Source: an uncultured Anaerovibrio sp. (GTDB taxonomy: Bacteria > Bacillota > Negativicutes > Selenomonadales > Selenomonadaceae). Taken from it: a DNA stretch of 64,000 bases. The translations under genes were made by a program, and so were the position numbers. Position 1 is the first letter of the stretch; the number at the start of each line of letters is the position of its first letter. The notes beneath the pieces were generated by a model. It searched no databases. It was not told the DNA's origin and saw only the letters and a list, made by a program, of their open reading frames with translations. The stretch lies in the NCBI RefSeq assembly GCF_947302755.1, contig NZ_CAMYWM010000001.1, forward strand, positions 625-64,624. The letters are read 5' to 3'. Shown in pieces: positions 2,228 through 25,992 of the stretch.

Positions 2228-2317
2228 GTGTTATACAGTTAAAAGGAGTATCATATAGTAGAGTATGTATGCAATTAAGGGCGACAGCCAATTGATTAGA
2301 TAGGGGAAAACAATTTG

Positions 2318-4857: not shown

Positions 4858-4887
4858 GGGATACTCCCTTACTTAAAGGTATTTATT

Positions 4888-6382: not shown

Positions 6383-6451
6383 ATTTTGGCTCTCTTGAGG
6401 AAACTGTCTGCCCTGCAGACTGAGGGGGGTATACCTATCTGAAAGGTCAAT

Positions 6452-7480
6452 ATGGATATAAATAAGTTAAAAATTAAAAGAATACTAATAATAGATTTAG
6501 CCTTTATTGGCGATGTGATTTTGGCTACGCCGGTTACCCGGGCGGTGAAGGCCAGGTGGCCAGAGGCGGAGCTTACCATGCTGACGGTTCCCTTTACCGA
6601 AGCCGTGGCCAAAATGAACCCCTACGTGGATAAAACCCTGGTCTATGACAAGCGGGGAAGACACAAGGGCTTGTCCGGGATGTGGCAAATGGCCAAAAGC
6701 CTTAAAAAATACAAATTTGATTTGGCCATTTGTATGAATTTTGCCCTTCGTGGTGCTGTGGTAGCCTGGCTGGCCCGGATTCCATATAGATTAGGCTATG
6801 ACGCTCAGCACGCCAGCTTCTTTTTGACCTGGGCTGTCAGCCATATAAGGGAGGGCATCAAGCATGAAACGGAAAATCACTTGGAAATACTGAAGCCCTT
6901 TGGTTTTTCCACGGAGGACACCTCCATAAAGCTGGAGCCGACCGCTGAGGCAATTTTATCCATGGAAGAAAAATATAAAAATTATGGTATAAAAAAAAGC
7001 AAGTATTATGTAGTATGCCCCATAGGAAGTTATGAGCGTAAAAATATGCCCATTAATATAGTTTCATATCTTATTAAGGAGCTTAAAAACACCTATCCGG
7101 TGTATTTTATTGGAGGCACAAGGGAGAAAACAGAGCTTATTGGTTATGCTCAGGCCGTACAGTTATCTGAGACTCATGTTTTTGCCGGCACATTTAACTT
7201 ACAGGAATTGGCAGTATTTATAAAAAATGCTGCTGGAATGGCTACTGTAGATACTGGTCCAATGCACATAGCCCAGGCTGTGAATTGTCCAACAATAGCT
7301 GTTTTTGGTCCAACGGATCCCATAGTGTGGGGGCCACGAAATGAAAACAGTTGTTATATCTACACTAATGAGGCGTGTTCTCCGTGCTGGGGAAAGGGCG
7401 AGTGTAAGGATAATGTTTGCATAAAAAAAATTAAGGCAAAGGACTTATATGAAAAGCTACGACAATATTCTGGTCATTAA
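6452..7480 (+). CDS. ADP-heptose:LPS heptosyltransferase (GT9), copy 2
   Basis: Motifs ILIIDLAFIGDVILATP and VDTGPMHIAQAVNCPTIAVFGPTD. Confidence 0.85.
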   Translation: MDINKLKIKRILIIDLAFIGDVILATPVTRAVKARWPEAELTMLTVPFTEAVAKMNPYVDKTLVYDKRGRHKGLSGMWQMAKSLKKYKFDLAICMNFALRGAVVAWLARIPYRLGYDAQHASFFLTWAVSHIREGIKHETENHLEILKPFGFSTEDTSIKLEPTAEAILSMEEKYKNYGIKKSKYYVVCPIGSYERKNMPINIVSYLIKELKNTYPVYFIGGTREKTELIGYAQAVQLSETHVFAGTFNLQELAVFIKNAAGMATVDTGPMHIAQAVNCPTIAVFGPTDPIVWGPRNENSCYIYTNEACSPCWGKGECKDNVCIKKIKAKDLYEKLRQYSGH

Positions 7481-8627
7481 TCTCATGCACATTGGGGATT
7501 TAATGCTGACTACACCGGTATTGAGAACCATGAGGTCCAATTATCCCCAGTCACGAATAACCCTGTTGGCGGATAAAAAGCTGGCGGATTTGGTGATTAA
7601 TAATAAGTGGATTAATGAATGCTTATTGATAGACAAAAAGGGGGCCGATAATTCACTGCCGGCCTTAATAAAATTCATTGGCAGAGTCCGTGAGAAAAAA
7701 TACGATTTGGTGATAAACCTCCACCGGAACGAACGGGCCTCGGCCATAGCGGCCTTTAGCGGGGCTAAGACCATCGTAGGCTACAGCAAGCCCGTCTTTT
7801 CCCTGTGGTTTACCGAGGTGAGAAATAATCCCTCCATAGCTCATCACATCGGTTGGGGGCCTCTGCATTTGCTTCCCCCATATAAATATGTACCGGGCTG
7901 GGAGCATCAGGTTCACGCTCATCTAAACCTGTTAAAGGAAACCCTGAACATAGATAAAATCGATGATGGGGGCCTGGAAATGTGGATCGATGAGCAGACT
8001 ACAGCCAGGGCAGAGCAGCTTTGGCAGGACAGCTTTCCTCCGGGAGTCAGGGTGGTGGCCTTCAATATTGGGGCCAGCTGGATTACCAAGCGGTGGCTGG
8101 ACAGCTATTTTGCCCAATGCGGTGATACGCTTATTGACAGGGGCTATGGCGTAGCCTTCTTTGGTGGGCCAATGGATGATGAAATAGTCCAGAGCTGTAT
8201 CAGCCTTATGAAGCATAGGGACAGTAAGCTTATCAAGGTATTTACCGGCAAATTGTCCCTGGGGGAATTGGGGGCCATGCTGAAAAAATGCGCCCTGATG
8301 CTGACCACCGACTCCGGGCCCATGCATGTGGGGGTATCCCAAAATGTGCCGATTGTAACCATGTTTGGGGCCTCCCCGGTGCCGGGCTTTTATCCCTATG
8401 ATGCCAAGGATGTGCTTATAAAGAGCCCGGAGCCATGTCATCCATGTGGCATTCATCGATGTCCACATGAGGGGGAGCAAAATCTGGCCTGCATGAAGCA
8501 TATTACCGTTGATATAGTGATGAAATACGTGTGGGAGCTGCTGGAAAAATACGAAGCTCAGGCCGGAAACGTGCCTAGAGAATACGGTGCTTACCAGTGC
8601 CGTGTGATAGATGTAGCAAAAGGGTAG
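7449..8627 (+). CDS. ADP-heptose:LPS heptosyltransferase (GT9), copy 3, with an internal insertion
   Basis: Motifs ILVINLMHIGDLMLTTP and TTDSGPMHVGVSQNVPIVTMFG. The start overlaps the previous gene by 32 nt. Confidence 0.8.
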   Translation: MKSYDNILVINLMHIGDLMLTTPVLRTMRSNYPQSRITLLADKKLADLVINNKWINECLLIDKKGADNSLPALIKFIGRVREKKYDLVINLHRNERASAIAAFSGAKTIVGYSKPVFSLWFTEVRNNPSIAHHIGWGPLHLLPPYKYVPGWEHQVHAHLNLLKETLNIDKIDDGGLEMWIDEQTTARAEQLWQDSFPPGVRVVAFNIGASWITKRWLDSYFAQCGDTLIDRGYGVAFFGGPMDDEIVQSCISLMKHRDSKLIKVFTGKLSLGELGAMLKKCALMLTTDSGPMHVGVSQNVPIVTMFGASPVPGFYPYDAKDVLIKSPEPCHPCGIHRCPHEGEQNLACMKHITVDIVMKYVWELLEKYEAQAGNVPREYGAYQCRVIDVAKG

Positions 8628-8645
8628 TAAGGAGGAAATAGTATC

Positions 8646-9653
8646 ATGACCGCAAGCAAGGATAGATTAAAGGAATTTGTGACCTCAGGCATGTCCAAGG
8701 TACATCTTTTGGTGGTGGGGGATGTAATGCTGGATAAGTATTACTATGGCGAGGTAACCAGGATATCCCCGGAGGCTCCGGTTCCCATTACTCGGGTGGT
8801 GGAGACCAAGGATACCATGGGCGGTGCCGCCAACGTAGCCCACAACCTGGCCCTGCTGGGGTGTAAGACATCTATTGCCGGATTTGTGGGGGATGATTAT
8901 CACTGTCAGACCCTGGTGGATAAATTTATATCCCGGGGGATTGATTACAAGGGGATTATTTATCGTGAGGAACCGACTACCACCAAGCTGAGGGTAATTG
9001 GCGGCCATCAGCAGATGCTGCGCCTTGATTTTGAGGATACGGAGCCGGTGAAGCCACTGTATGCCAATCGTCTGTTAAATTATGTGGAGCAGGCATTGGA
9101 GGAATTCGATGCTGTTATTATCTCCGATTACGGCAAGGGAGCCTGTACGCCGGAGGTGTGCACCAGTATTATTGAAATGTGCAATAATGCCAATATTCCT
9201 GTACTGGTGGATCCGAAGGGCCGGGAATGGCAGAAATACACCAACGCGGATTTTATCACCCCAAATGTAAAGGAAATCAATGAAATTTTGGAAAAACCGA
9301 TTAAGAACCGGGATGAGGCAGTACAGCAGGCTGCTACCTACATTATGAGCAGGTTTAAAATCAAGAATGTACTGGCCACCCGTTCTGAATGCGGTATGTC
9401 AATGGTGAGTCCAACCGATGCCGTTCATATCCCGACCAAGTCTCAGGAGGTTTTTGATGTATCCGGTGCCGGTGATACGGTAATTGCCGTATTTGCTCTG
9501 GGTATTGCCGGCGGACTTATTCCCCGGGAGGCAGCTTATTTGGCAAATCTGGCAGCCAGCGTAGTGGTGGCCAAGCTGGGGACCTATGCGGTGAGCAAGG
9601 ATGAATTGGAAAATGTACTTTTGCAGAGCATCAGGGCTGAGGAGGAAAAATAA
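8646..9653 (+). CDS. Second RfaE-domain-I-type sugar kinase (pfkB family), paralog of 3847-4857
   Basis: Motifs HLLVVGDVMLDKYYYGEVTRISPEAPVP, GGAANVAHN, VFDVSGAGDT. Confidence 0.75.
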   Translation: MTASKDRLKEFVTSGMSKVHLLVVGDVMLDKYYYGEVTRISPEAPVPITRVVETKDTMGGAANVAHNLALLGCKTSIAGFVGDDYHCQTLVDKFISRGIDYKGIIYREEPTTTKLRVIGGHQQMLRLDFEDTEPVKPLYANRLLNYVEQALEEFDAVIISDYGKGACTPEVCTSIIEMCNNANIPVLVDPKGREWQKYTNADFITPNVKEINEILEKPIKNRDEAVQQAATYIMSRFKIKNVLATRSECGMSMVSPTDAVHIPTKSQEVFDVSGAGDTVIAVFALGIAGGLIPREAAYLANLAASVVVAKLGTYAVSKDELENVLLQSIRAEEEK

Positions 9654-9656
9654 CCC

Positions 9657-10658
9657 ATGATTATTGTAACCGGTGGTGCCGGGTTTATTGGCAGCAATAT
9701 CGTAAAGGAGCTGAACCGTCAGGGGCGCAGTGATATCCTTATTGTGGATGATTTGAACAATCGTAAGGAGCAGAGTCAGTCCTACCGGAACCTGCGGGGG
9801 CTGCAGTTCATTGATTATATGCACAAGGATGATTTCCTCGCTGCTATCCAACGCAAGGAATTTGACGGTGTGGATGTGGACGTGGTATTCCATGAGGGAG
9901 CTTGCTCCGATACCATGGAGTACGATGTAAACTACATGATGAAGGCCAACTACGAGTATTCCAAGGCAGTGCTTCATTTCTGCATGGAGCATCGGATCCC
10001 CTTCCTTTATGCCTCCTCTGCCTCCACCTACGGAGCGGGGGAGCATGGCTTCCGGGAGGGAAATGAGTGCGAGGATGCCCTGAATCCTTACGCCTACTCC
10101 AAGCTGTTATTTGACCGCTATGTTCGTCAGGTGATTTCTGATACTCAGAGCCAGATTGTGGGTCTCAAATATTTCAACGTATATGGTCCTCAGGAGCACC
10201 ACAAGGGCAATATGGCCTCTATTTTCTATCAGCTGTATCATCAGGTGAAGAAGGATGGAGTATGCCGTCTTTTTGAAGGATGGGGCAAGTTCAGTGATGG
10301 TACTGACGTGCCAAATGGCGGTCAGAAGCGTGACTTTATTTACGTAAAGGACGTGGTAAAGGTAAATTTGTGGTTCTGGCAGCACAAGGGCCCCAGCGGA
10401 ATCTATAACTGCGGTACAGGCAAGGCCCATACCTACAATGAGGTGGCTGACAGCGTAATCAAGGCATTAGGCAAAGGTAAAATTGAGTACCGTGATTTCC
10501 CAGAGGTGTTAAAGGGCAAGTATCAAAACTATACTGAATCTGATACCACCAAGTTGCTGGAGGCCGGCTACGACCAGGGCTTCTATGATATGTACGATGC
10601 CGTAAAGGAATATTGTGACTTCCTGGATGAGGGCGGCTATTTTAAGTATGGCAAATAG
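9657..10658 (+). CDS. hldD: ADP-L-glycero-D-manno-heptose 6-epimerase
   Basis: Rossmann start MIIVTGGAGFIGSNIV, then YASSASTYG and the YAYSK catalytic Y-x3-K. The length is typical of HldD/RfaD. Confidence 0.9.
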   Translation: MIIVTGGAGFIGSNIVKELNRQGRSDILIVDDLNNRKEQSQSYRNLRGLQFIDYMHKDDFLAAIQRKEFDGVDVDVVFHEGACSDTMEYDVNYMMKANYEYSKAVLHFCMEHRIPFLYASSASTYGAGEHGFREGNECEDALNPYAYSKLLFDRYVRQVISDTQSQIVGLKYFNVYGPQEHHKGNMASIFYQLYHQVKKDGVCRLFEGWGKFSDGTDVPNGGQKRDFIYVKDVVKVNLWFWQHKGPSGIYNCGTGKAHTYNEVADSVIKALGKGKIEYRDFPEVLKGKYQNYTESDTTKLLEAGYDQGFYDMYDAVKEYCDFLDEGGYFKYGK

Positions 10659-10660
10659 GT

Positions 10661-11170
10661 ATGACCATGAATAGGGCGGTATTTTTTGATCGGGATGGCA
10701 CCTTAAACGAGGAGGTCCATTACCTGCACAAAATAGAAGACTTTAAATGGATAGATGGAGCCATTGACGCCATAAGGTATTGTAATGACAATGGTTATCT
10801 GGTCATTGTCATTACTAATCAGAGCGGCGTTGCCCGGGGGTATTATCCGGAAAGTGACATTATGAAGCTTTATGAGTGGATGAACGCCGATTTGGCCAAG
10901 CATGGAGCCCATCTTGACGGTATTTATTATTGTCCCCACCATCCTACTGGCAAGGTAAAGGAATACGCCATAGAATGCGATTGCCGCAAGCCAAAGGCCG
11001 GTATGCTGCTTCAGGCCCAGCGGGATCATGATATTGACCTGAAGGCGTCTTACCTTATTGGTGATGGGGCCAGGGATGTGGAATGTGCTGAGGCAGCCGG
11101 AGTAATAGGGATACGGTATAATGGGGGTAATCTTTATAAGGCCCTTATATATGGTATGAAAAATAAATAA
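10661..11170 (+). CDS. gmhB: D-glycero-D-manno-heptose 1,7-bisphosphate phosphatase (HAD family)
   Basis: Motifs FFDRDGTLN (DxDGT), ITNQSG, CDCRKPKAGM, GDGARD. Confidence 0.85.
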   Translation: MTMNRAVFFDRDGTLNEEVHYLHKIEDFKWIDGAIDAIRYCNDNGYLVIVITNQSGVARGYYPESDIMKLYEWMNADLAKHGAHLDGIYYCPHHPTGKVKEYAIECDCRKPKAGMLLQAQRDHDIDLKASYLIGDGARDVECAEAAGVIGIRYNGGNLYKALIYGMKNK

Positions 11171-11184
11171 AGGACGAGGATATA

Positions 11185-12261
11185 ATGAAGTTTGTGCAGA
11201 TTGCTCACGCGATTACAAAGGATGATGCGGCCAGTAGACAGCTTCTGAATATGGATTCCATGCTTAAGGAGCTGGGATACGATACGGCGATGTTTGCCCA
11301 CAAGGTGGACAGTCGCTTGACAGATCAGGTAAAATCCATGGAGGCTTTTTCGGCCACAGCGGAAGATATCATCATATATCATATGACTACCGGCACCTCC
11401 TTTAACAAGTGGGTGTATAATTATCCTCAAAAAATCGTGCTGTATTATCACAATATTACTCCTGCCAAATTTTTCTTCGGTAATGCCTGGGGATCCTGGT
11501 GGAAGTGTATAAAGGGCCGGCGGGAATTAAAAAAAATTGCTGCCAACAGCTTTTTTGCCTGGGGAGCTTCTGAGTATTCCCGTAAGGAGCTGGTTGATCT
11601 GGGAATGGAACGTACGGCTGTAATGTCCATTGTGGTGGAGCCGGGAAAATACACTCAGTATGAACCAGTAGCTTCTCTGCTGGATAAGTATCAGGATGAT
11701 GTGCCAACACTGCTGATGGTGGGACGTGGGGTGCCACACAAAAAGCTAGATGAAGCTATAGTGGCAGTCCATTGGTATAAGGAACATATCTCGCCAGTTA
11801 TTCGGTTGGTACTGGCGGGAAATATCAAGAGCAGTTACGCCAAGAAGCTCCATCGAATGGTGGAGAGTCTTGGATTGGTTGAACAGGTGATTTTTACCGG
11901 CCAGATATCCAATGAGGAATTGTGTACCTGGTATCGGATTACTGATGCAGTTCTGTCCCTTAGTGAGCATGAAGGATTCTGCGTGCCATTGGTGGAGGGG
12001 ATGATTTTCGACAAACCGGTATTTGCCTATGCCTGCTCTGCTGTGCCGGAGACACTGGGCGAGGCCGGTGTACTGTTAAAGGATAAATCGCCTGAAGCAA
12101 TAGCTACTATTATAAAAAATGTGTTAAATGACCAGGATAAACTGGCCCAACTGGCTGATGGAAGAAAAAAGCGGTTGGCGGCACTTTCCTATGACAGATT
12201 GATGGAAAAATTCCGTCAGGATATAAAAACTATAATTGAGCTGAAGAAACAGCTCAGCTAG
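11185..12261 (+). CDS. GT-B fold glycosyltransferase (GT4-like)
   Basis: C-terminal EHEGFCVPLVEGM (E-x7-E type) motif. Located in the LPS core cluster. Confidence 0.7.
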   Translation: MKFVQIAHAITKDDAASRQLLNMDSMLKELGYDTAMFAHKVDSRLTDQVKSMEAFSATAEDIIIYHMTTGTSFNKWVYNYPQKIVLYYHNITPAKFFFGNAWGSWWKCIKGRRELKKIAANSFFAWGASEYSRKELVDLGMERTAVMSIVVEPGKYTQYEPVASLLDKYQDDVPTLLMVGRGVPHKKLDEAIVAVHWYKEHISPVIRLVLAGNIKSSYAKKLHRMVESLGLVEQVIFTGQISNEELCTWYRITDAVLSLSEHEGFCVPLVEGMIFDKPVFAYACSAVPETLGEAGVLLKDKSPEAIATIIKNVLNDQDKLAQLADGRKKRLAALSYDRLMEKFRQDIKTIIELKKQLS

Positions 12262-12272
12262 GATGTGCAACA

Positions 12273-13049
12273 ATGGCCAAGCTTACGGTTTTGATTTTGG
12301 CAAAAAATGAAGAAAAAAATATCAGCGACTGCATAAAAAGTGTCTTGTTCGCTGATGAAATACTGGTTATAGATGATTTTAGCACGGATACCACGGCAAG
12401 GATTGCTGAAGAACTGGGGGCCAGGGTTATCCAGCATTCTATGGATGGCAATTGGGGTCAGCAAAAAACCTTTGGCATTGAGCAGGCCAGCCACCCATGG
12501 ATTTACCTGTTGGATGCGGATGAACGGGTTACTGAGCCATTGAAGGAGGAAATCCTCAAGGCCATAAATAGTGAGGAAAAGTTTGTTTATTATAATGCCC
12601 GGTTAAATCATTTCTGCGGTAAAGTAGTAAGATACAGTGGCTGGTTTCCGGATTACGGTATTCATCTTATTCCCAAGGATGGCTCCTATGTAACGGGGTA
12701 TGTTCATGAGGAAATACACTATAATTATCCGGTGAAAAAAATGCCTAAGTCGGCATATTTGCTGCATTATACCTATGTGTCCTGGGAACAGTATCTGCGG
12801 AAGCTGAATAACTATACCACTTTGGGGGCCAGAAAAAAGTTTGATGCGGGCAAGCGGGCCGGTATTTTGGATATTATATTTCACCCGTTGTTTGGTATGT
12901 TTAAAATCTTTTTTGTCCAGCGAGCCTTTCTGGATGGACTGACTGGTTGCTTCCTGACGGTAGGGCATGGGATAAGCGTGTTTATGAAATATTCCAAGCT
13001 GTACTATCTGGGGAAGGGGATTGGTACCGCTGACAAGGAAAAGAGCTGA
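12273..13049 (+). CDS. GT2 glycosyltransferase, WaaE/KdtX-like LPS core enzyme
   Basis: Motifs VLILAKNEEKNISDCIKSV, DEILVIDDFSTDTT, LLDADERV. The size (258 aa) matches KdtX-type proteins. Confidence 0.7.
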   Translation: MAKLTVLILAKNEEKNISDCIKSVLFADEILVIDDFSTDTTARIAEELGARVIQHSMDGNWGQQKTFGIEQASHPWIYLLDADERVTEPLKEEILKAINSEEKFVYYNARLNHFCGKVVRYSGWFPDYGIHLIPKDGSYVTGYVHEEIHYNYPVKKMPKSAYLLHYTYVSWEQYLRKLNNYTTLGARKKFDAGKRAGILDIIFHPLFGMFKIFFVQRAFLDGLTGCFLTVGHGISVFMKYSKLYYLGKGIGTADKEKS

Positions 13050-13055
13050 TAATTA

Positions 13056-13973
13056 GTGAGTGACAATAAATTGCAAAGCTATACTGCTTTAGGAAAGCAG
13101 ATTTACGATATAAGAAAGACCAGAGAGGCCAGACGGTATTATGTATTTGTGCTGCGGTCAGTTTTTTTGCGGGGGAAATTGGACAAGCTACAGCGGCATT
13201 TTACCAGTACACCGTTGCTGACTGAGGTACAGAAGCTGTACCCCTTTGTTTATGAACAGCCTACCCGGGCTTTTTTTTATAACAAGTCCACCTTTGAGGA
13301 GCGGGCTGAGATTGTAACAAAGCATATGGATTATTTAGCTGAAACGCTAAAACCAGAGGTGTTGTTGGACATTTATCGGGAAAAGGATATCCCGCTTTGG
13401 GAAGGCGGCGATGTAGATGGCAAACGATTTTGGGCATCGCTTTTCTATGAGCCGGGACAGCGGAAGGAAGGCATTTTATCTGTGATGTTGCGCCTGGATG
13501 AGGAACCGCTGTACCAGATGATTTTTTGGATTGCTCCGGATAAGGCCGGGAACTGGTCCATGTGGATTGGGGCTATGCAAGGTCCGAATATGGACGATGC
13601 CAAGGAGGTTATCAAAAAAATAACCAAGCGGTGTCATAGCTATCGCACGAAAAATCTTATTCTTTATATTGCCCAGGCGGTGGCCCGGGGCTTGGGGTTA
13701 AAGCGAATTTATGCTGTAACTAATTATGGTTATTATGCCAATAACCATGTAAGGATGGATCGGAAGCTGAAGACATCCTTTAGCGATTTTTGGGCAGAAG
13801 CCGGAGGACATCCCACCGAGGATAAGCGCTTTGATATCCTGCCGTTAGTGGAAACCCGGAAAACCATGGAGGAAGTACCTACCAGAAAACGGGCAGTATA
13901 CCGCCGGCGGTTTGAATTGTTAGATGAGATAGATGAAAGTGTAAATAGTGCCTTGGGGGCATTGTTGAAATAA
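13056..13973 (+). CDS. VirK/YbjX (DUF535) family protein
   Basis: Blocks WIGAMQGPN, ITKRCH..RTKNLILY, IYAV and SFSDFWAEAGG match my recollection of YbjX (IGGLQGP, ATK, IYAV, SY-EFWE-LGG). GTG start. Confidence 0.6.
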   Translation: MSDNKLQSYTALGKQIYDIRKTREARRYYVFVLRSVFLRGKLDKLQRHFTSTPLLTEVQKLYPFVYEQPTRAFFYNKSTFEERAEIVTKHMDYLAETLKPEVLLDIYREKDIPLWEGGDVDGKRFWASLFYEPGQRKEGILSVMLRLDEEPLYQMIFWIAPDKAGNWSMWIGAMQGPNMDDAKEVIKKITKRCHSYRTKNLILYIAQAVARGLGLKRIYAVTNYGYYANNHVRMDRKLKTSFSDFWAEAGGHPTEDKRFDILPLVETRKTMEEVPTRKRAVYRRRFELLDEIDESVNSALGALLK

Positions 13974-14007: not shown

Positions 14008-15207
14008 ATGAAACTTCTTTTTGTGTGTACAACGGAATTGCAGCTTTTGACGGCTTTGAATTTAAAATATAACATCTATAAGGATGATATTGCAGATATA
14101 ATTGTAGATAATTATCATGGAGAAGAGGCTGCATTGGCAGACCGTATTAAACAAACCAATATATTCAGGAATGTTTGTTTTGTAAAATCCAATATAGAAG
14201 AAAAGACTATACACGCATATTTACGCGGTATTAGCGATGGCAAAACAAATATAACCTCCGGAGATGCTTTAGTGAATAGCTTCTTTTTTGTCTGGAGTCG
14301 TATAAAAACTGTTTTCAGTAAAGACAAGGGATGGCTAAGTGTTTTAGTTAATGATTTCTCCAAGCTGACTATGTCAGAGTATGATGCATTTTTTGGCTAC
14401 GGTGGGAAAAAAATCACAAAACATGTGCGTTTATTTTTAGATGAGATTAATCCATCCTGTAAGATTGTTCAGCTTGATGAGGGCGTAGGGGCTTATTGCG
14501 CCGGAAATGTTGGGGAAAATACTAAAATTGATTCTTGCGAGGTTTATGAGCCTGATTTGTTGCAGTTTACGGCTGTGACTAAAAAAGTTCCAGCAATAGA
14601 CAAAGAAGATATCACTTTTGTAAACATTGTCAATCAGATTTTTGAGTATGATGATACAAAAAATGTAGATTTTAGTGGGAATATTGTTTTTTTTGATCAG
14701 GGTGTTTCTAGTCCAATGCCAAAGTATTTAAGAAATGCCTCCTTCCTTACAAAATTGATATTTCATAATTCATATCGAAGGCACAAAGTTGAAGAAGATG
14801 TTTATGAAAGATGGAAGCAGATTACATTGGAAATATTAAAATCTGTAGGAGAAAAAAATATTTGGGTTAAAATGCATCCAAGAGCTTCTTCAGAGGCGTT
14901 ATCATTTTTTGCGGCTATGCCTAATGTTAATATAATGCCACAGTATAGAGTTCCGTGGGAAATTATGGCTCTAAATTCTAAAGTTGAGGATAGTGTTTTG
15001 ATGTCTTTTTTTTCCAGTTCGACCTGTCTGCATAATTCTGTTGTAAAATCGGCTGGCAAAAATATGATTATATTGCTATATGACATGGTTGATTTACCAA
15101 TAGAGCAAGTCGTGGTTGATTATTGTAAAGCACTAAGTAAACGCTTCAATAACAAAATTTTTATCCCAAAAGATAGGGAGGAATTCTTATCATTCTGGAA
15201 AAAATAA
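14008..15207 (+). CDS. Putative nonulosonic-acid (sialyl-type) transferase, paralog 1
   Basis: D-E-G at 14476-14484 (VQLDEGVGAY) and H-P at 14875-14880 (VKMHPR) match the two motifs shared by bacterial sialyltransferases. It aligns by eye with 28539-29786 (LFVC-T-L-L--AL, NSY--H). It lies next to NulO biosynthesis genes. Confidence 0.5.
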   Translation: MKLLFVCTTELQLLTALNLKYNIYKDDIADIIVDNYHGEEAALADRIKQTNIFRNVCFVKSNIEEKTIHAYLRGISDGKTNITSGDALVNSFFFVWSRIKTVFSKDKGWLSVLVNDFSKLTMSEYDAFFGYGGKKITKHVRLFLDEINPSCKIVQLDEGVGAYCAGNVGENTKIDSCEVYEPDLLQFTAVTKKVPAIDKEDITFVNIVNQIFEYDDTKNVDFSGNIVFFDQGVSSPMPKYLRNASFLTKLIFHNSYRRHKVEEDVYERWKQITLEILKSVGEKNIWVKMHPRASSEALSFFAAMPNVNIMPQYRVPWEIMALNSKVEDSVLMSFFSSSTCLHNSVVKSAGKNMIILLYDMVDLPIEQVVVDYCKALSKRFNNKIFIPKDREEFLSFWKK

Positions 15208-15344: not shown

Positions 15345-16304
15345 ATGTATAATGTTGTAATAATCGGTGTAGGTGCTCTTGGAAGAAGACATCTTTCGTC
15401 TATATTAAATTCTACATTAGATCTTGATGTGTGTTGTTATGATATTAATGGGCATGCTTTGGAAGGTTTTGAGTGGGAGAATACATACAATAATAAAAAA
15501 CTAACTATGGTCAAAGCCTTCAAAGATTTGCCACAAACAATAGATTTCGCTTTATTTGCTATGACTGCCAATGGTCGGAGGGAAATGTTTGACCAGCTTA
15601 TTGAACACTGTACTGTTAAGAATATTTTATTCGAAAAAGTGTTATTCCAGAAGGTTGAAGATTATGAGCATGTTGCCAGTAAGCTAAATGAACTCCGTAT
15701 AAAGGCCTGGGTGAATTGTGCCAGACGACAGATGAATTGCTATCAGGATTTAAAGAAAGAGTTGGAATCTGCCAAGGAAATGCGAGTTAACATATCAGGC
15801 GGTGAGTGGGGATTGGGCTGCAATGCTATCCACGAAATCGATTTGATTGAGTTTTTATCCGGCAGTAGTGCGACAAAGATTGATAAGTTGAGTCTTCTGC
15901 CACAGATAGCTGATAGCAAACGTAAGGGATTCAAAGAAGTTTATGGTACCATATCAGGGCATAGCGGGAAATGTTCATATTTTTCCATTACCTGCATGAA
16001 AGAGACTCATGTTCCGAGTGTAATGACAATTTCCACTGATATTGGGCAGTACATAGTATTTGAAGAAAACCAAAAGCTGGTGTGCATGACAAAGAGTGGC
16101 GAGTACGATCTTATAGAAAGAGATTTTGTTATGCCATATCAGAGTCAGATGACGCAGTTTGTAATGGAAGATATTTTATTGACCGGAGAATCACGTTTGG
16201 CCAAGTACGATGTATCAAGTAGACTTCATTTGGAGTTTATTGAGCCGCTTATTAAATTCTTTAACAAAAATGGATGGGAGAGTAATTCATGTCCAATAAC
16301 TTAA
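15345..16304 (+). CDS. Gfo/Idh/MocA-like NAD(P) oxidoreductase
   Basis: RBS GGAGG upstream. N-terminal Rossmann VVIIGVGALGRRH and ILFEKV (EK-type motif). Family assignment is moderate. Confidence 0.6.
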   Translation: MYNVVIIGVGALGRRHLSSILNSTLDLDVCCYDINGHALEGFEWENTYNNKKLTMVKAFKDLPQTIDFALFAMTANGRREMFDQLIEHCTVKNILFEKVLFQKVEDYEHVASKLNELRIKAWVNCARRQMNCYQDLKKELESAKEMRVNISGGEWGLGCNAIHEIDLIEFLSGSSATKIDKLSLLPQIADSKRKGFKEVYGTISGHSGKCSYFSITCMKETHVPSVMTISTDIGQYIVFEENQKLVCMTKSGEYDLIERDFVMPYQSQMTQFVMEDILLTGESRLAKYDVSSRLHLEFIEPLIKFFNKNGWESNSCPIT

Positions 16305-17248
16305 AACAAGTTCTGATTGTAGGCACAGGAGGAATAGCAGGAGAGTATTGCAAGGTACTTCATGCTATTGGTATAGAGCCCGACGTTGTGGGAAGAAATG
16401 AAGATAAGGCAAAGAAGTTTGGGGAAAAACATGCTGTCACAGCCTTTGGCGGTGGTATCGATAATTATTTGGCAAATACTGGAAAAAAATATGATTATGC
16501 CATTGTTGCCACTGATGTTTTGAATCTTTGTACCAATACTTGTTCTTTGCTTGAGCATGGCATAAAAAAAATTTTCACAGAAAAACCAGCTGGTATGAAT
16601 AAGGCAGAGATTACCAAGATATGTCAGAATGCAGAAAAATATAATGCCAAGGTATATGTGGCATATAACAGAAGATTTTATGCTTCAACTACTAAAGCTA
16701 TAGATATTATACAGGAGGATGGTGGAGTACAATCATTCAATTTTGAATTTACCGAGTGGAGTCATGAAATTGAGTCATTGCCTACCCCGGCCGAAGTGAA
16801 AGAAGAATGGTTTTTGGCAAATTCTACGCATGTAGTGGATTTGGCTTTTTTCTTAGGAGGTGAGCCTGAAAAAATGGCCAGCTTTATTACTGGTGGCTTA
16901 TATTGGCACCCAAAAGGCTGTGTTTATTCCGGTGCCGGAATGACCAAGAATAAGGCACTTTTTAGTTATCAGGCTAACTGGGCAGCTCCGGGCCGTTGGG
17001 TAGTTGAAATATTAACTAGCAAACATAGATTGTATTTTAGCCCTATGGAGAAATTGTCCATTCAGGAATTGGGTTCTGTAGTTGTTAATCCTGTTGAGAT
17101 TGATGACAAGATAGACTTGGATTATAAACCAGGCTTTTATAAGGAGGTTGATTCCTTTATAAATGAAATTGATGATGGTAAAAAGAAGACAATTCAGGAT
17201 CAGCTCCGTTATATGGAATATTTTGACAAGATAGAAGGAAAAGCATAA
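16289..17248 (+). CDS. Gfo/Idh/MocA-like NAD(P) oxidoreductase
   Basis: Motifs VLIVGTGGIAGEY and IFTEKPAG (EKP motif). Overlaps the upstream gene by 16 nt. Confidence 0.65.
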   Translation: MSNNLKQVLIVGTGGIAGEYCKVLHAIGIEPDVVGRNEDKAKKFGEKHAVTAFGGGIDNYLANTGKKYDYAIVATDVLNLCTNTCSLLEHGIKKIFTEKPAGMNKAEITKICQNAEKYNAKVYVAYNRRFYASTTKAIDIIQEDGGVQSFNFEFTEWSHEIESLPTPAEVKEEWFLANSTHVVDLAFFLGGEPEKMASFITGGLYWHPKGCVYSGAGMTKNKALFSYQANWAAPGRWVVEILTSKHRLYFSPMEKLSIQELGSVVVNPVEIDDKIDLDYKPGFYKEVDSFINEIDDGKKKTIQDQLRYMEYFDKIEGKA

Positions 17249-17283
17249 TATCTATCAAGATTATTGTATTAGGATGATATAAC

Positions 17284-18492
17284 ATGTTTAATTTAGATGC
17301 ATTTATTAATAAATACGTTATCAAGCGGGAGCAAAGCATGTTCCTTGGGGATATCGAGGTAAATAAAGTGCAGTTAAGTAAAAAAATAGCTGGAAAAACG
17401 GTTTTGGTTATTGGTGGAGCTGGTTCTATTGGTTCATCATTTATTAAGGCTATTTTGCCGTTTAAGCCTGCGACTCTTGTTGTGGTGGATATAAACGAAA
17501 ACGGCCTAGCTGAGCTGACACGTGATTTGCGTTCCACTAAAGGTATGTATGTGCCAAAAGACTATGTTCCCTATCCAATGAACTTTGCTTCTACTGTGTT
17601 TGAAAAAATGTTCAGAATTCGAGGGGGCTTTGATATTGTGGCAAACTTTTCCGCTCATAAGCATGTTCGCTCGGAAAAAGATATTTATTCCGTTGAGGCC
17701 CTCTTGCAAAATAATGTTTTGCAGGCCAAGAAACTCTTAGATTTACTGGCGGAGCTACCTCCAGAGGAATTTTTTTGCGTGTCGACAGATAAGGCAGCTA
17801 ATCCGGCAAATATCATGGGAGCCAGCAAACGTATCATGGAGGATGTTATTTTCGCATACTCCGATAAGTTCCCGGTAAAGACGGCCCGTTTTGCCAATGT
17901 GGCCTTTTCCAATGGGTCTCTTCCAGCTGGCTTCATTGCCAGATTGCAGAAGCTACAGCCAATAAGTGCACCATCTGATGTAAAGCGGTATTTTGTATCG
18001 CCGGAGGAAAGCGGACAGATTTGTATGCTGTCCTGCATGTTGGGCAACAATCGGGAAATTTTCTTCCCACGTCTTGAAGAGGCCCAAATGATGACCTTTG
18101 ATAAGATTGCAACAACCCTTTTGGAAGAACATGGCTATGAAGTGCTGGAATGCGATAGTGATGAAGAGGCTATCGAAAAAGCGGCCGAATTGAGAAAAGG
18201 CAGCAAGCAATATCCAGTTCATTATTCTGGTTCCAATACCTCCGGTGAAAAGGCATATGAGGAATTTTATACCGAAAGCGAGACTGTAGACTTAGCACGG
18301 CTGAAATCATTGGGTGTGGTTACTGGTAAAGAAATACCTGATAAAGCAAAGGTGAAGGCTTTGTTTGACAAGCTGACCGCTGTGTTTGATAAAGAAAGTA
18401 CCACTAAAGAAGAAGTGGTAAAGATTATAGCGGAGTATTTACCGAATTTTGAGCATATTGAGACGGGGAAGTCACTGGATAGTAAGATGTAG
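17284..18492 (+). CDS. NDP-HexNAc 4,6-dehydratase, soluble CapD/PglF-type
   Basis: Motifs VLVIGGAGSIGSSF and STDKAANPANIMGASKRIME (Polysacc_synt_2 signature). Confidence 0.75.
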   Translation: MFNLDAFINKYVIKREQSMFLGDIEVNKVQLSKKIAGKTVLVIGGAGSIGSSFIKAILPFKPATLVVVDINENGLAELTRDLRSTKGMYVPKDYVPYPMNFASTVFEKMFRIRGGFDIVANFSAHKHVRSEKDIYSVEALLQNNVLQAKKLLDLLAELPPEEFFCVSTDKAANPANIMGASKRIMEDVIFAYSDKFPVKTARFANVAFSNGSLPAGFIARLQKLQPISAPSDVKRYFVSPEESGQICMLSCMLGNNREIFFPRLEEAQMMTFDKIATTLLEEHGYEVLECDSDEEAIEKAAELRKGSKQYPVHYSGSNTSGEKAYEEFYTESETVDLARLKSLGVVTGKEIPDKAKVKALFDKLTAVFDKESTTKEEVVKIIAEYLPNFEHIETGKSLDSKM

Positions 18493-18565
18493 ACCTCATC
18501 CGCCCTTCGGGGGATTAACCTCATCCGTCAGCATAGCGGCTGCCACCTTCCCCAGAGGGGAAGGC
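18493..18565 (-). repeat. REP-like hairpin repeat, family B, copy 1 (inverted relative to the copies at 44996 and 45083)
   Basis: Its reverse complement matches the shared modules GCCTTCCCCTCTGGGGAAGGTGGCA, a variable hairpin, GACGGATGAGGT, and a small hairpin. Confidence 0.8.
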
Positions 18566-18581
18566 AAAAAACGAAGGAGAT

Positions 18582-19766
18582 GTGAATGTGAGCAGATTTA
18601 TACCTTTATCTATACCGAATTTTGAAGGTAATGAACGGAAATATGTAGATGATGCCATTGATCAGGGGTGGGTATCCACTGGTGGTGCCTATATTACCAA
18701 GCTAGAGGAAAAGCTGGCAGGTTTTTTACATACAGATAATGTGGCAGCTTGTCAGAGCGGTACCGCTGCGCTGCATCTTTCAATGGTGGAGGCTGGTGTA
18801 CGGCCAGGCGATGTGGTTTTGGTTCCGCCACTTACCTTTATTGCAGCGGTAAATCCGGTAAAGTATCAGTTTGCTACTCCTGTATTTATCGATTGTGATG
18901 ACAGTTTTTGTATGTCTCCAGTAAAATTACAGGCATTTTGTGAAAATGAGTGCAGCTTTGATGGAAATCAGCTTCGTTATAATAATCAGCCAGTTAAGGC
19001 TGTAGTCGTGGTTCACATATTTGGCAATATGGCGGATATGGTGGCCATTATGGATATTGCTCAAAAGTATAACCTCAAAGTAGTTGAGGATGCTACCGAG
19101 GCCTTGGGTAGTAAATTTACAGCTGGTCCATTGGCGGGGCAATATGCTGGTACTATTGGTGATTTTGGCTGCTACTCCTTCAATGGGAATAAGATTATTA
19201 CCACTGGTGGCGGTGGTGCGGTTACGGCCAATAACACCAAAGTGGTAGACCATCTTCGTTATTTATCCACACAGGCAAAAAATGATGTGCATTATTACAT
19301 TCATAACGAGGTTGGTTATAACTATCGCATGACTAATCTTCAAGCCGCCTTGGGGGTGGCTCAGATGGAAGAACTGCCAGAGTTTATCCGCCGTAAGCAG
19401 GCTAATTTTCAGCTATACTGTGAATTGTTTGATAGTTTCGAGTTTGGTAAAATGGTAGGATTCCGCGATGATATTGATTCAAATATGTGGTTCTATTCTC
19501 TGGAAATAAATCGTGATAAGGTGAAAAACTCTATGCGGGATATCATTACGGCGTTGGAAAAATGTGGGATTCAGACTAGAGCTATATGGGGGCTTATTAA
19601 TGAGCAGATACCATATAAGAATGAGGTAACCTACGAGCTAGAAAAAGCACCGTATTATGCTAAGAGGATCTTAAATTTGCCGTCCAGTACCCAAATAACC
19701 AAAGCGGAAATTGAGTATGTGGTCGAGCAGGTAAAGAAAGTGTTAGGTGATTTTGCTCATGGATAA
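18582..19766 (+). CDS. DegT/DnrJ/EryC1-family sugar aminotransferase (LegC/PglE-like)
   Basis: Motifs CQSGTAALHL, FNGNKIITTGGGGAV (PLP lysine) and GYNYRMTNLQAALG. GTG start after AAGGAG. Confidence 0.85.
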   Translation: MNVSRFIPLSIPNFEGNERKYVDDAIDQGWVSTGGAYITKLEEKLAGFLHTDNVAACQSGTAALHLSMVEAGVRPGDVVLVPPLTFIAAVNPVKYQFATPVFIDCDDSFCMSPVKLQAFCENECSFDGNQLRYNNQPVKAVVVVHIFGNMADMVAIMDIAQKYNLKVVEDATEALGSKFTAGPLAGQYAGTIGDFGCYSFNGNKIITTGGGGAVTANNTKVVDHLRYLSTQAKNDVHYYIHNEVGYNYRMTNLQAALGVAQMEELPEFIRRKQANFQLYCELFDSFEFGKMVGFRDDIDSNMWFYSLEINRDKVKNSMRDIITALEKCGIQTRAIWGLINEQIPYKNEVTYELEKAPYYAKRILNLPSSTQITKAEIEYVVEQVKKVLGDFAHG

Positions 19767-20838
19767 GGAGCGAATGCAGGAGTTTTTAGCAAAATTGCCA
19801 TTGTCTGTAGTTGAGGCCATGGCAATGATAGATAGTCATGCCCACGATGCTGGATTGGTATTTATTGTTGATGAAATAAATAGACTGGTTGGCTGTATAA
19901 CAGATGGAGATATTCGTCGTTGGATATTAAAGGGCGGTGAAGTGAATGCTCCGGCAGAAAAAGTTATGTACAAAACGCCTATATATTTGTCCGAACGTGA
20001 TGCAGCCAATGCAAAGGCGGTATTGATTAAGGAAAGCATTACCGCCGTTCCCATTGTGGATGATGATAATAAAATTGTTGATATTGCGCTGTCACGAGAA
20101 GTAAGTAACATAAAAAACAGGAAAAAGAGGCTAAAAGGTGTTCCGGTGGTCATAATGGCTGGCGGTAAAGGTACTCGGCTTTATCCATATACCAAAATAT
20201 TGCCTAAGCCCCTTATTCCTATTGGAGACACCCCTATAGTGGAGCGAATCATTGATTGTTACGTGGAATATGGTATTGACAAATACTATATGACGGTTAA
20301 TTATAAAAAGGGAATGCTTCGATCCTATTTCAATGATTTGGCACCAAACTACGGCATAAAATTCGTGGAGGAGGATAAGCCATTAGGAACTGGTGGCAGC
20401 ATCAAGTTGATTGAAGATAAGTTTGACAGACCACTATTTGTTACCAATTGTGATGCACTTATTCGGGCAGATTACTCGGATATCTATGAACATCATATTA
20501 AGTGCGGGAATGATATTACAATGGTAGTTGCCCTGAAGAATATCACAGTGCCCTATGGTGTGGTGAATTCCGGGGAGAACGGCGAGTTACTCTCTATGGA
20601 AGAAAAACCTACCCTATCCTATTTCATTAATACAGGTATGTATATCATCAACCCTGAAACCATTGACTTGATACCGGATGCTACCATGTTCCACATGACG
20701 CATTTGGTGGAAAAGGTGATGAAACAGGGGGGCAAGGTTGGCACTTACCCTATAAGTGAGGATTCCTTCCTGGATATGGGTGAGTTTGAGGAAATGAAAC
20801 GAATGGAGCAGAAATTAAATATTATTTCTGATAAATGA
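19747..20838 (+). CDS. CBS-pair plus sugar-phosphate nucleotidyltransferase (PtmE-like); start uncertain (19747, 19759 or 19774)
   Basis: N-terminal CBS-like segments (LVGCITDGDIRRW, AVPIVDDDNKIVDI), then VVIMAGGKGTRLYPYTKILPKPLIPIG and EEDKPLGTGGS. Confidence 0.75.
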   Translation: MILLMDKERMQEFLAKLPLSVVEAMAMIDSHAHDAGLVFIVDEINRLVGCITDGDIRRWILKGGEVNAPAEKVMYKTPIYLSERDAANAKAVLIKESITAVPIVDDDNKIVDIALSREVSNIKNRKKRLKGVPVVIMAGGKGTRLYPYTKILPKPLIPIGDTPIVERIIDCYVEYGIDKYYMTVNYKKGMLRSYFNDLAPNYGIKFVEEDKPLGTGGSIKLIEDKFDRPLFVTNCDALIRADYSDIYEHHIKCGNDITMVVALKNITVPYGVVNSGENGELLSMEEKPTLSYFINTGMYIINPETIDLIPDATMFHMTHLVEKVMKQGGKVGTYPISEDSFLDMGEFEEMKRMEQKLNIISDK

Positions 20839-21410
20839 TTATGGAAGATATTGTGCTGGTTGGCTTTGGCGGTCATGCCAAAAGCGTGGCTGACTGTCTT
20901 GAACGGGAAGAAAAATATCATATTGTTGGTTATACAGATATGCAGGCAGCAACTTCCCAGTATGCATATTTGGGCACTGATGACAAGCTGCAGGCCATTT
21001 TTGACCGCGGTGTAAAAAATGCTGTTATTGGTATTGGCTATATGGGACGGGGAGCTATTCGGCAGCAGCTTTATAGTAAACTGAAAGAAATAGGTTTTGA
21101 GTTACCTGTTATCGTTGATCCATCTGCTATTGTTTCTGCCACAGCACTCATTGGCGAAGGTACTTTCGTGGGCAAGGGTGCCATAGTAAATGCCGAAGCA
21201 AAAATTGGGAAAATGACCATCATTAATACTAAAGCACTTGTGGAGCATGAGTGTGTAGTGGGGGATTTTGCCCATGTGGCTGTAGGAGCTGTGTTGTGCG
21301 GACAGGTGGAGATTGGCGAAGGAGCTTTTATCGGGGCGAATGCCACTGTTATTCAGTGCCGAAAAGTGGAGCCAAATACTGTAATTCCGGCAGGGGCAAC
21401 TATCAGATAA
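20835..21410 (+). CDS. NeuD/PglD-family sugar N-acetyltransferase (hexapeptide repeat)
   Basis: N-terminal VLVGFGGHAKSV, then left-handed beta-helix repeats (IGEGTFVGKGAIVNAEAKIG ... VEIGEGAFIGANATV). Confidence 0.8.
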   Translation: MIMEDIVLVGFGGHAKSVADCLEREEKYHIVGYTDMQAATSQYAYLGTDDKLQAIFDRGVKNAVIGIGYMGRGAIRQQLYSKLKEIGFELPVIVDPSAIVSATALIGEGTFVGKGAIVNAEAKIGKMTIINTKALVEHECVVGDFAHVAVGAVLCGQVEIGEGAFIGANATVIQCRKVEPNTVIPAGATIR

Positions 21411-21412
21411 GG

Positions 21413-22417
21413 ATGAAGGTTATGCAAAAGGTGTTGATTATTGCCGAGGCTGGCGTTAATCATAATGGAGATATAAATATTGCCAAAAGGCTGATAGATG
21501 AGGCTAAAAGAAGCGGAGCGGATATTGTGAAGTTTCAGACCTTTAATCCACAAAAGCTGGCTTCGAAATATGCGACAATGGCGGAATATCAAAAGGATAA
21601 TCTGGGCCGGGAAGAATCACAGGAAGCAATGCTCAGCAAGTTGACACTGAGTTGGGGCGAATATGTGGAGTTGGCGGAGTATTGTAAAAAGATAGGTATT
21701 AAATTCTTGTCTACTCCGTTTGAAAGCGAAAGTATTCATTTCTTGGATGATTTGCAGGATATATGGAAAATCCCGTCTGGGGAAATTACCAATTATCCTT
21801 ATCTGGTGGATATTGCCAAGACTGGAAAAGAGGTTATTCTTTCTACGGGAATGAGTAATATTGATGAGGTTAAAGGGGCCATTGATGTTTTGAAGAAACA
21901 TGGCGCAGGAAAAATCACGCTGCTCCATTGTACCACTAATTATCCAACTCCGATGGATGATGTTAATCTTAGGGCTATGCTGACGCTTGAAAAGGAATGT
22001 GGCTGTGCGGTAGGCTATTCTGACCATACGCAGGGAATAGAAGTCCCTATTGCGGCTGTGGCCATGGGGGCAACCGTAATTGAAAAGCATTTTACCCTTG
22101 ACAGGAATATGGATGGACCTGATCATAAGGCCAGCTTGGAGCCAGATGAGTTAAAGGCAATGGTTTCTGCCATTAGAAATGTGGAGAAGGCTATGGGAGA
22201 TGGCAATAAAGTACCGTCACCATCCGAAATGGCCAATATAGCTGTGGTCAGAAAGAGCATTATTGCAGCCAAGGACATAAGGGCCGGTGAAATTTTTTCT
22301 GAGGAAAATTTGACGACCAAACGGCCGGGAACAGGAATCAATCCAATGCGTTGGAATGAGGTTTTAGGGCAAAAAGCTAAACGGGATTTTGCAGAGGATG
22401 AACTGATAGAGTTATGA
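21413..22417 (+). CDS. Nonulosonic acid synthase (NeuB/LegI family)
   Basis: Motifs IIAEAGVNHNGD, GADIVKFQTF, KIPSGEITNYP, STGMS, LLHCTTNYP, GYSDHT, EKHFTLD, plus a C-terminal SAF-like domain. The internal ATG was chosen because the 21251 extension overlaps the acetyltransferase gene. Confidence 0.9.
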   Translation: MKVMQKVLIIAEAGVNHNGDINIAKRLIDEAKRSGADIVKFQTFNPQKLASKYATMAEYQKDNLGREESQEAMLSKLTLSWGEYVELAEYCKKIGIKFLSTPFESESIHFLDDLQDIWKIPSGEITNYPYLVDIAKTGKEVILSTGMSNIDEVKGAIDVLKKHGAGKITLLHCTTNYPTPMDDVNLRAMLTLEKECGCAVGYSDHTQGIEVPIAAVAMGATVIEKHFTLDRNMDGPDHKASLEPDELKAMVSAIRNVEKAMGDGNKVPSPSEMANIAVVRKSIIAAKDIRAGEIFSEENLTTKRPGTGINPMRWNEVLGQKAKRDFAEDELIEL

Positions 22418-23568: not shown

Positions 23569-23588
23569 ACGAAGAAAGGTTGAGTATT

Positions 23589-25882: not shown

Positions 25883-25992
25883 TTTTTATTGCGCATTAAG
25901 GCGGCACCCTAATTGTAGATATGGTATATTATTATCTGCTATTAGCGAGGTATAGAAAGGTGGAGAATGTATCCGCCGCAGATACATAATTG

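Follow-up and report, generated by a model that had tools for sequence, protein, structure and literature searches.

Candidate CMP-nonulosonic acid transferases related to GT38 polysialyltransferases at the two ends of a legionaminic acid pathway in an uncultured Anaerovibrio

Legionaminic acid (Leg) and pseudaminic acid (Pse) are sialic-acid mimics displayed on many bacterial surfaces. To our knowledge, hardly any enzymes are known that link Leg to glycans, which is why promiscuous sialyltransferases have been borrowed for chemoenzymatic work. The known dedicated Leg/Pse transferases are the Maf proteins, the TagB-domain proteins of Tannerella and the retaining enzyme KpsS1 of glycosyltransferase (GT) family 118. 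Here, we describe two paralogs, A (14008-15207, 399 aa) and B (28539-29786, 415 aa), encoded on the forward strand of a 64,000-nucleotide stretch of DNA (hereafter the window) from an uncultured Anaerovibrio sp., where A closes a block of lipopolysaccharide (LPS) core glycosyltransferase genes and B stands at the 3' end of a Leg pathway. Our analysis indicates that A and B are, with high probability, transferases of nonulosonic acids activated by cytidine monophosphate (CMP) and related to family GT38. On balance, we also lean towards the joint proposal that their donor is Leg, their acceptor the LPS core and their mode of action a single addition.

The closest described systems are the alpha-2,8-polysialyltransferases of CAZy family GT38 (Pfam PF07388), namely E. 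coli K1 NeuS, Neisseria SiaD and Mannheimia haemolytica MhPST (PDB 5wc6/5wcn). Structure and mutants of MhPST, which was crystallized in an open state, have assigned E153 of the E152-E153-G loop as catalytic base, K289 as the residue that reads cytosine and P292 as lining the cytosine pocket, while H291 binds the alpha-phosphate and stabilizes the CMP leaving group, E323 holds the ribose hydroxyls, S339 and T340 hold the phosphate, and an electropositive groove binds the polyanion (PMC5517516). The D/E-D/E-G and HP motifs are motifs of bacterial sialyltransferases, as described by Freiberger et al. (2007) according to PMC5420450 and PMC7439481, and also in PMC5517516. The GT52 Neisseria lipooligosaccharide (LOS) sialyltransferase (NST/Lst, PDB 2yk4-2yk6) and the GT80 enzymes PmST1 and PdST share both motifs and the GT-B fold and decorate LOS, and Lst and PmST1 accept CMP-Leg5,7Ac2 in vitro (PMC11356810). 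However, the GT52 and GT80 enzymes have no detectable sequence similarity to A or B, score below GT38 in structural comparison, use CMP-Neu5Ac as natural donor and are not encoded beside a Leg pathway.

The retaining enzymes GT99 WbbB, GT107 KpsC/KpsS, GT118 KpsS1 (a Pse5Ac7Ac transferase) and GT140 KrkA also use CMP-ulosonic-acid donors and carry a K/RxHP motif in the C-terminal Rossmann domain; their GT-B fold is modified, the N-domain being reduced, and a two-step mechanism is described for KpsC and WbbB and has support in KrkA (PMC12887879). A and B, in contrast, combine a complete N-terminal Rossmann domain with the D/E-E-G base that inverting sialyltransferases use. From KpsS1, it is clear that a transferase family can be dedicated to nonulosonic acids. 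The TagB-domain proteins of Tannerella forsythia (Tanf_01245 and TFUB4_00887), in which PMC5420450 notes both D/E-D/E-G and HP, and the Maf flagellin glycosyltransferases, a separate family, are likewise encoded near nonulosonic-acid pathways, but they belong to other domain families and act on protein acceptors, not on LPS.

Relationship of A and B to polysialyltransferases

A and B are real divergent paralogs, as the initial annotation of this DNA had proposed, since BLASTP aligns the two forward-strand open reading frames (ORFs) at 28% identity over about 400 residues (E 8e-51); the common N-terminal LFVC.T.L.L..AL segment that it described is seen in this alignment. Identity is 27.5% in the N-terminal and 25.4% in the C-terminal domain, a similarity that gives no hint as to which domain carries a functional difference. 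Both proteins are near neutral (A, pI 6.7 and net charge -1; B, pI 7.2 and net charge 0), no transmembrane (TM) segment or signal peptide was found in either, and their genes are the most AT-rich of the cluster. When a hidden Markov model built from relatives was run against all six-frame ORFs of the window, A and B alone were found. An unannotated 333-aa protein (57664-58665) was considered as a third family member and rejected at an hhalign probability of 0.1%.

Profile comparisons link the two proteins and their family remotely to GT38. A matches PF07388 with an E-value of 0.0021 and 18.1 bits (gathering threshold, 23.3 bits) over residues 144-338, which include both motifs, and B gives no match to this model. 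Among 36 aligned relatives, 29 match PF07388 at E <= 0.01 (best E 8e-10), and more distant representatives of the family pass the cutoff at 44.8 and 67.2 bits. Moreover, hhalign aligned a 48-sequence family profile with NeuS plus MhPST at a probability of 95.7% (E 8.5e-9); the 203 aligned columns begin at the acidic motif and reach the C-terminal helices. With NeuS alone, the probability was 77.7% (E 1.9e-5). No other Pfam family gave a significant match to A or B, and NCBIfam gave no meaningful one. The earlier statement that the paralogs match no family was therefore overstated: they are remote GT38/PF07388 relatives, and it holds insofar as neither reaches the PF07388 cutoff.

The family itself is large, because an exhaustive profile search at E <= 0.001 recovered 2,436 clusters at 50% identity, and 131 of these had E <= 1e-30; a homolog search with a broad alignment added hardly any further members. 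Functional names were attached to none of the matches from homolog searches or the cluster look-up. With E. coli K1 NeuS from the UTI89 kps locus as query, phmmer found no match among 205 family proteins even at E <= 10. The idea of a distinct subfamily thus gained ground, with A and B below the PF07388 cutoff and NeuS detecting none of 205 members, yet a family of this size is involved.

Predicted structures agree with the profile evidence. AlphaFold2 models of A (pLDDT 90.0, pTM 0.89) and B (pLDDT 91.2, pTM 0.90) both consist of two alternating beta/alpha (Rossmann) domains in a GT-B arrangement. Foldseek searches of the PDB ranked MhPST at the top for A (5wc6_A, E 2.1e-8) and for B (5wc6_A, E 4.8e-10, together with 5wcn_A). 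After GT38, the list for A continues with the Neisseria GT52 LOS sialyltransferase (NST) and the Pasteurella GT80 enzymes (PdST/PmST1), so that GT52 and GT80 are its second and fourth structural matches, followed by generic GT-B enzymes; none of the retaining families GT99, GT107, GT118 and GT140 appears in the top Foldseek lists for A or B. A comparison with GT-B sialyltransferases, which the initial annotation had suggested, thus yielded the predicted fold for both proteins and GT38 as the best PDB match. Identity in the structural alignment with the GT38 crystal structure is 13-14%. Within both models, strand five of the N-domain leads into the acidic loop, and the HP, PWE and Ser motifs each come after a strand of the C-domain, at the C-terminal strand ends, as one would expect of residues around the inter-domain cleft of a GT-B enzyme.

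Both motifs of the GT38, GT52 and GT80 sialyltransferase group are present, conserved and at homologous positions in A and B, and the coordinates given for them at the outset proved exact. The acidic motif of A, D157-E158-G159 (14476-14484), lies in a loop between strand 152-156 and helix 160-164 of the AlphaFold model and aligns with NeuS E163/E164/G165 and MhPST E152/E153; E158, the predicted catalytic base, is thereby equivalent to MhPST E153 and to E163 within the EEG motif of B (residues 162-164; 29022-29030). The K-x-H-P motif of A, K288-M-H290-P291 (14869-14880, with HP at 14875-14880), is predicted to bind the cytosine and phosphate of CMP and aligns with MhPST K289/H291/P292 and with KLHP of B (residues 292-295; 29412-29423, with HP from residue 294 at 29418-29423). 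The cytosine Lys is accordingly K289 in MhPST, K288 in A and K292 in B, the phosphate His is H291, H290 and H294, and the pocket Pro is P292, P291 and P295. Further along, P316-W317-E318 of A (14953-14961) corresponds to PWE of B (residues 321-323; 29499-29507), and E318, the predicted ligand of the ribose 2',3'-hydroxyls, aligns with NeuS E321, MhPST E323 and B E323. Finally, within S336-S337-S338 of A (15013-15021), predicted ligands of the CMP phosphate, S336/S337 align with MhPST S339/T340 and with S341 of B (29559-29561).

The spacing of these residues is nearly identical in MhPST (E153-H291-S339) and A (E158-H290-S336), and their contexts follow the common patterns h-h-[DE]-E-G-x-G-x-Y (QLDEGVGAY in A, VLEEGIGSY in B, LIEEGTGTY in NeuS) and (I/V)-K-x-H-P (VKMHPR, VKLHPT and IKPHPK, respectively). 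HP follows the acidic motif by 132 residues in both A and B, close to the figure of about 130 put forward earlier, and an acidic-acidic-Gly motif with HP 120-145 residues further on occurs in just 0.3% of shuffles of A or of B. Across the 36 relatives, E158, G159, K288, P291, P316, W317, E318 and N323 (A numbering) are invariant and H290 and S336 are at least 90% conserved; H290, P291, E318 and S336 are invariant in the 48-sequence alignment of more distant members, which extends down to about 20% identity.

Between the two motifs, the family carries a segment of its own, PMPxYL...NxY[KR][KR]H, at about residues 233-262 of A, in which P238, Y240, N254, Y256 and H259 are conserved. The NSY-(R/K)-H element reported earlier lies inside this segment and is present in both paralogs, with two basic residues instead of one: NSYRRH in A (residues 254-259; 14767-14784) and NSYKKH in B (residues 258-263). 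NeuS is gapped across the PMPxYL...NSY[KR][KR]H segment in the hhalign alignment and so lacks these conserved 20-30 or so residues. We conclude that A and B are remote homologs of GT38 that we would place beside, and not inside, that family, from which they differ in profile threshold, charge (near neutral, against the strongly basic MhPST and NeuS), insertion and type of locus: A and B lie in an LPS-core/Leg locus in which no ABC exporter was found, whereas E. coli K1 NeuS belongs to a group-2 kps/neu capsule locus with KpsMT export.

Gene neighborhood in the window and in other loci

Upstream of A, the forward strand carries an LPS inner/outer-core block (3847-13973), read from Pfam matches as a PfkB kinase, a heptose nucleotidyltransferase-like gene, three GT9 heptosyltransferases, a second PfkB kinase, an HldD-like epimerase, a GmhB-like phosphatase, a GT4, a GT2 and a DUF535 gene. 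The stretch between A and B (15345-28448, also forward) holds Leg biosynthesis and modification genes recognized with Pfam and NCBIfam. It begins with two GFO oxidoreductases, followed by a LegB-like 4,6-dehydratase (Polysacc_synt_2; 17284-18492), LegC (18582-19766; TIGR04181, 434.7 bits against a cutoff of 420), a CBS-NTP-transferase (19747-20838), a NeuD/PglD-type acetyltransferase (20835-21410; NeuD family, 178.8 bits), a NeuB-type synthase (21251-22417; NeuB_NnaB, 500.5 bits) and a NeuC-type hydrolyzing 2-epimerase (22414-23568; NeuC_NnaA, 400.3 bits), the last three over their cutoffs. A GFO oxidoreductase and a class-III aminotransferase, a CMP-sugar synthetase (cytidylyltransferase, CTP_transf_3; 25990-26709), a frameshifted GFO gene and a CN-hydrolase complete the set. 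The dehydratase and the synthetase were assigned from Pfam without an equivalog-level match. Judged by these matches, which cover all expected enzyme types, genes 17284-26709 constitute a legionaminic-acid pathway, and A and B do bracket a donor-sugar pathway, as had been suggested.

Two of these genes deserve comment. The NeuB ORF at 21251-22417 has a GTG start that overlaps the acetyltransferase gene; its true start is probably near 21431, because the NCBIfam match begins at residue 61. The GFO/IDH/MocA gene at 26706-27687 is split into two overlapping frames (26706-27011 and 26986-27687) with a break near the A-run GAGGAAAAACG at about 26990, and represents either a frameshift pseudogene or a sequencing error.

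Immediately downstream of B, and starting 1 nt after its stop codon, lies a forward-strand MBOAT O-acyltransferase gene recognized by Pfam (29788-31212), followed on the same strand by a gene for a 358-aa protein (31225-32301) with one N-terminal membrane segment by hydropathy and without a Pfam match. The pair resembles MBOAT-plus-partner systems that O-acylate extracytoplasmic polymers, and the two proteins probably O-acylate a glycan outside the cytoplasm. No Wzx, Wzy, WaaL or ABC-transporter Pfam families were found among the scanned genes of the 1-32.3 kb region.

The association with nonulosonic-acid genes extends beyond the window. Counting neighbors within about 10 kb of 14 family genes, drawn from the window and ten other distinct loci, we found a cytidylyltransferase near 11, and near 10 of these a NeuB-type synthase as well. 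A locus search with a narrower alignment had returned three genomes only, all Selenomonadales. One parallel is a 21-kb Leg locus of Selenomonas sp. ND2010 (L007), whose only family member is an A-like gene (41% identity) directly before homologs of LegB, LegC and PtmE (77-87% identity), with NeuB, NeuC, a cytidylyltransferase and then an MBOAT gene ending the cluster. On human-gut contigs (L001-3), GT2-GT8-DUF535 genes precede an A-like gene, a PseF/PseG-like fusion and NeuB. B-like genes stand before a Leg-type pathway in L009 and before PseB/PseC...PseI pathways in L008 and L010 (PseI about 500 bits), and L010 has an A-like and a B-like gene, each ahead of its own nonulosonic-acid gene set. 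More remote members in L015, L016 and L017 adjoin NeuB and CTP_transf_3, and in L013 (234-8217) and L014 a PF07388-positive member adjoins a CTP_transf_3 cytidylyltransferase, an HMGL-like aldolase, split thiamine pyrophosphate (TPP)-enzyme genes and a SIS-domain protein, a set that perhaps makes another CMP-activated ulosonic acid.

Gene order around the paralogs is also partly retained. The core-block order of the window recurs at 74-97% identity in L011, and partly in L001-3 and L007. L011 has two tandem members after DUF535 (8808-11200), a 392-aa paralog that passes the PF07388 cutoff at 27.9 bits and a 64%-identical ortholog of A, and these are followed by a different sugar-gene set, with no NeuB within 10 kb. 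The P0045 clade (425 aa; L004-6, GC 0.37), of which many near-identical variants occur in ENA and Logan assemblies, is found in an LPS-core locus with two GT9 genes, a GT8, a GT4, a WaaL-like gene and a phosphoethanolamine-transferase-like sulfatase. Neither the A-clade nor the B-clade follows one sugar type across loci, and the A/B split is therefore more likely to reflect acceptor or position than donor.

Some smaller observations concern the relatives. DUF535 (VirK-family) genes lie directly upstream of the A-like gene in the window (13056-13973), in L001-3 (L001, 9027-9926) and in L011 (7865-8785, with the extra paralog between) and near it in L007 (5352-6242); they are 60-85% identical across the window, L001, L011 and L007. 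In three A-clade homologs, P0015, P0016 and P0017, the HP motif carries Ser or Asn where His is invariant elsewhere (KLSPRA, KLNPRA). In length and identity, P0015 corresponds to the A-like gene at 3302-4507 of L010, whose neighbors are a radical-SAM/SPASM gene, a DegT gene, a cytidylyltransferase gene and a short NeuB. In another protein, P0061 (716 aa), a full-length family domain, which scores 34.2 bits against PF07388 and thus passes the cutoff, is joined to a polysaccharide pyruvyl transferase domain.

Proposed function and alternative explanations

Taken together, the GT38 homology, the fold, the residue alignment and the Leg pathway between the genes support the earlier view of A and B as nonulosonic-acid transferases; DEG/EEG and HP align with the catalytic base and the CMP-phosphate His of MhPST (PMC5517516), and no non-glycosyltransferase family fits either protein. 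It is gene neighborhood that argues for a legionaminyltransferase function and, more generally, gene context that points to the donor (Leg, Pse or 3-deoxy-D-manno-oct-2-ulosonic acid, Kdo), the acceptors and the linkages. Several observations weigh against this reading. The PF07388 gathering score is reached by neither protein, and sequence and profile searches of the PDB with A, B and the 36- and 48-sequence profiles returned no relevant chain, only Kelch-repeat and leucyl-tRNA synthetase (LeuRS) noise. Foldseek TM-scores are just 0.47-0.50 for A and B, which is not strong alone, and domain orientation may be the cause. The placement of DEG/EEG and HP in the inter-domain cleft is a prediction from topology and alignment, and B has one Ser only at the S-S/T position and lacks the second hydroxyl residue. 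Three of the 14 family genes, namely the P0045 clade (L004-6) and the two L011 paralogs, are without nonulosonic-acid genes within 10 kb. Lastly, the window has a Pse pathway at 60.4-63.3 kb, and a second CMP-sugar is thus available.

That the motifs are coincidental, and A and B no nucleotide-sugar transferases at all, would suit two proteins under the Pfam and NCBIfam thresholds and without PDB sequence matches, but we give this idea almost no credence, because profile-profile homology to GT38 spans all motifs, GT38 is the top structural match for two independent models, the CMP-binding residues are invariant across the family and the motif pair is so rare in shuffles. A CMP-Kdo-dependent activity, in which A, or both enzymes, would add extra Kdo to the LPS core and the link to nonulosonic-acid genes would be positional only, draws on the K/RxHP motif and CMP-binding mode common to Kdo transferases (PMC12887879; PMC5517516), on the place of A at the end of the conserved core block GT4-GT2-DUF535-A, and on the L004-6 genes and two L011 paralogs, whose LPS-core loci show neither NeuB nor CTP_transf_3 within 10 kb. 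We nonetheless regard it as quite improbable: the cytidylyltransferase and NeuB-type neighbors of most family genes speak otherwise, the known beta-Kdo transferases GT99, GT107 and GT140, with their reduced N-domain, are absent from the top Foldseek matches, where GT38, GT52 and GT80 are found, and the lone family member of the ND2010 Leg locus is an A-like gene.

Equally low in our estimate is processive polymerization of Leg by one of the enzymes, on the pattern of GT38 polysialic acid or the Legionella pneumophila O-chain. Every characterized GT38 member polymerizes (PMC5517516), and a paralog pair could comprise an initiator and a polymerase; however, the net charges of A and B, near 0, contrast with +25 for MhPST and +28 for NeuS (pI 9.6-9.7), an indirect argument, and the 1-32 kb cluster yielded neither ABC-transporter nor KpsMT-type export genes. 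A little more deserving of consideration, if still unlikely, is the use of CMP-pseudaminic acid by one enzyme, more plausibly B, with PseB, PseC and PseF of the window as its source. These three are equivalogs over NCBIfam cutoffs, the B-clade relatives in L008 and L010 are directly upstream of PseB/PseC...PseI, and no clade is tied to one sugar type. Yet B directly follows the last Leg-pathway gene, 30 kb from the Pse genes, which are part of another, Wzx-type polysaccharide locus equipped with glycosyltransferases of its own, and the B-like gene of L009 adjoins a Leg-type pathway.

Our preferred reading is therefore that A and B are Leg transferases acting on the LPS core, with single transfer likelier than polymerization. 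Both would be soluble, cytoplasmic GT-B enzymes that move a Leg derivative from its CMP form to two different positions of the lipid A-core oligosaccharide. If MhPST and PmST1 are taken as guides, CMP would sit in the C-terminal Rossmann domain, held in A by K288 (cytosine), P291 (pocket), E318 (ribose) and H290 with S336/S337 (phosphate), and in B by K292, P295, E323, H294 and S341. The second acid of the N-domain D/E-E-G loop, E158 in A and E163 in B, would deprotonate the acceptor hydroxyl in a metal-independent, SN2-like and inverting reaction that would yield alpha-linked Leg; this stereochemistry is a prediction, as are single transfer and the cytoplasmic site of action. A would be a conserved core-capping enzyme and B would add a further residue at a second site, and, after export, the MBOAT protein and its partner encoded downstream of B would O-acylate the glycan.

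A broader proposal can be put forward tentatively, at somewhat less than even confidence. A and B may belong to a large family, related to GT38 but separate from it, whose natural donors are CMP-5,7-diamino nonulosonic acids (Leg, Pse and relatives) and which provides the main route of LPS-core capping in many bacteria; the PMPxYL...NSY[KR][KR]H insertion would recognize the di-N-acylated 9-deoxy sugar, and A and B would provide the first examples of native glycan legionaminyltransferases, one locus offering two acceptor specificities. Within the literature library searched, we found no prior description on PF07388 or on polysialyltransferase-like Leg/Pse transferases, and papers on the Vibrionaceae nab cluster and on the Legionella LPS locus mention no such gene. 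If A and B are indeed native Leg transferases, they would offer glycoengineering a donor-matched pair with distinct acceptor specificities, a widespread unannotated family would gain a function, and the GT38 scaffold would serve single-residue LPS decoration besides capsule polymerization. For annotation, a sub-threshold PF07388 match beside NeuB and CTP_transf_3 could be read as a CMP-nonulosonic-acid transferase. The prediction may not surprise a glycobiologist, yet it supplies testable candidates for a poorly known enzyme class.

Further features of the window

Housekeeping genes occupy 32.9-40 kb. A promoter and terminator scan of 13-32.9 kb gave 83 promoter-like sites against 66 expected, which is uninformative, and no convincing intergenic terminator; no tRNA or tmRNA genes were found in the window. 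A second, separate polysaccharide locus begins at 42705 and is cut by the window end at 64000. It contains an initiating sugar transferase, a Wza-like exporter, Wzz, a WecG-family GT, a UDP-sugar dehydrogenase and DegT, as well as a pyruvyl transferase with an FrhB-like Fe-S protein, a GT2, a TupA ATP-grasp protein, WbsX and a Wzx-like flippase. An 8-TM protein (55380-56534) is possibly its polymerase, and the PseB, PseC and PseF genes discussed above lie at 60420-63332.

At the head of the LPS locus, a 512-aa protein (2315-3853) with a signal-peptide-like N-terminus, a C-terminal aromatic residue and no Pfam match is possibly an outer-membrane protein. Between the housekeeping genes and the second polysaccharide locus, at 40375-41990, a gene for a HipA C-terminal kinase domain is followed by a fusion of a HipA N-terminal domain with HIRAN, an unusual split that gives a rearranged, HipA-like layout.

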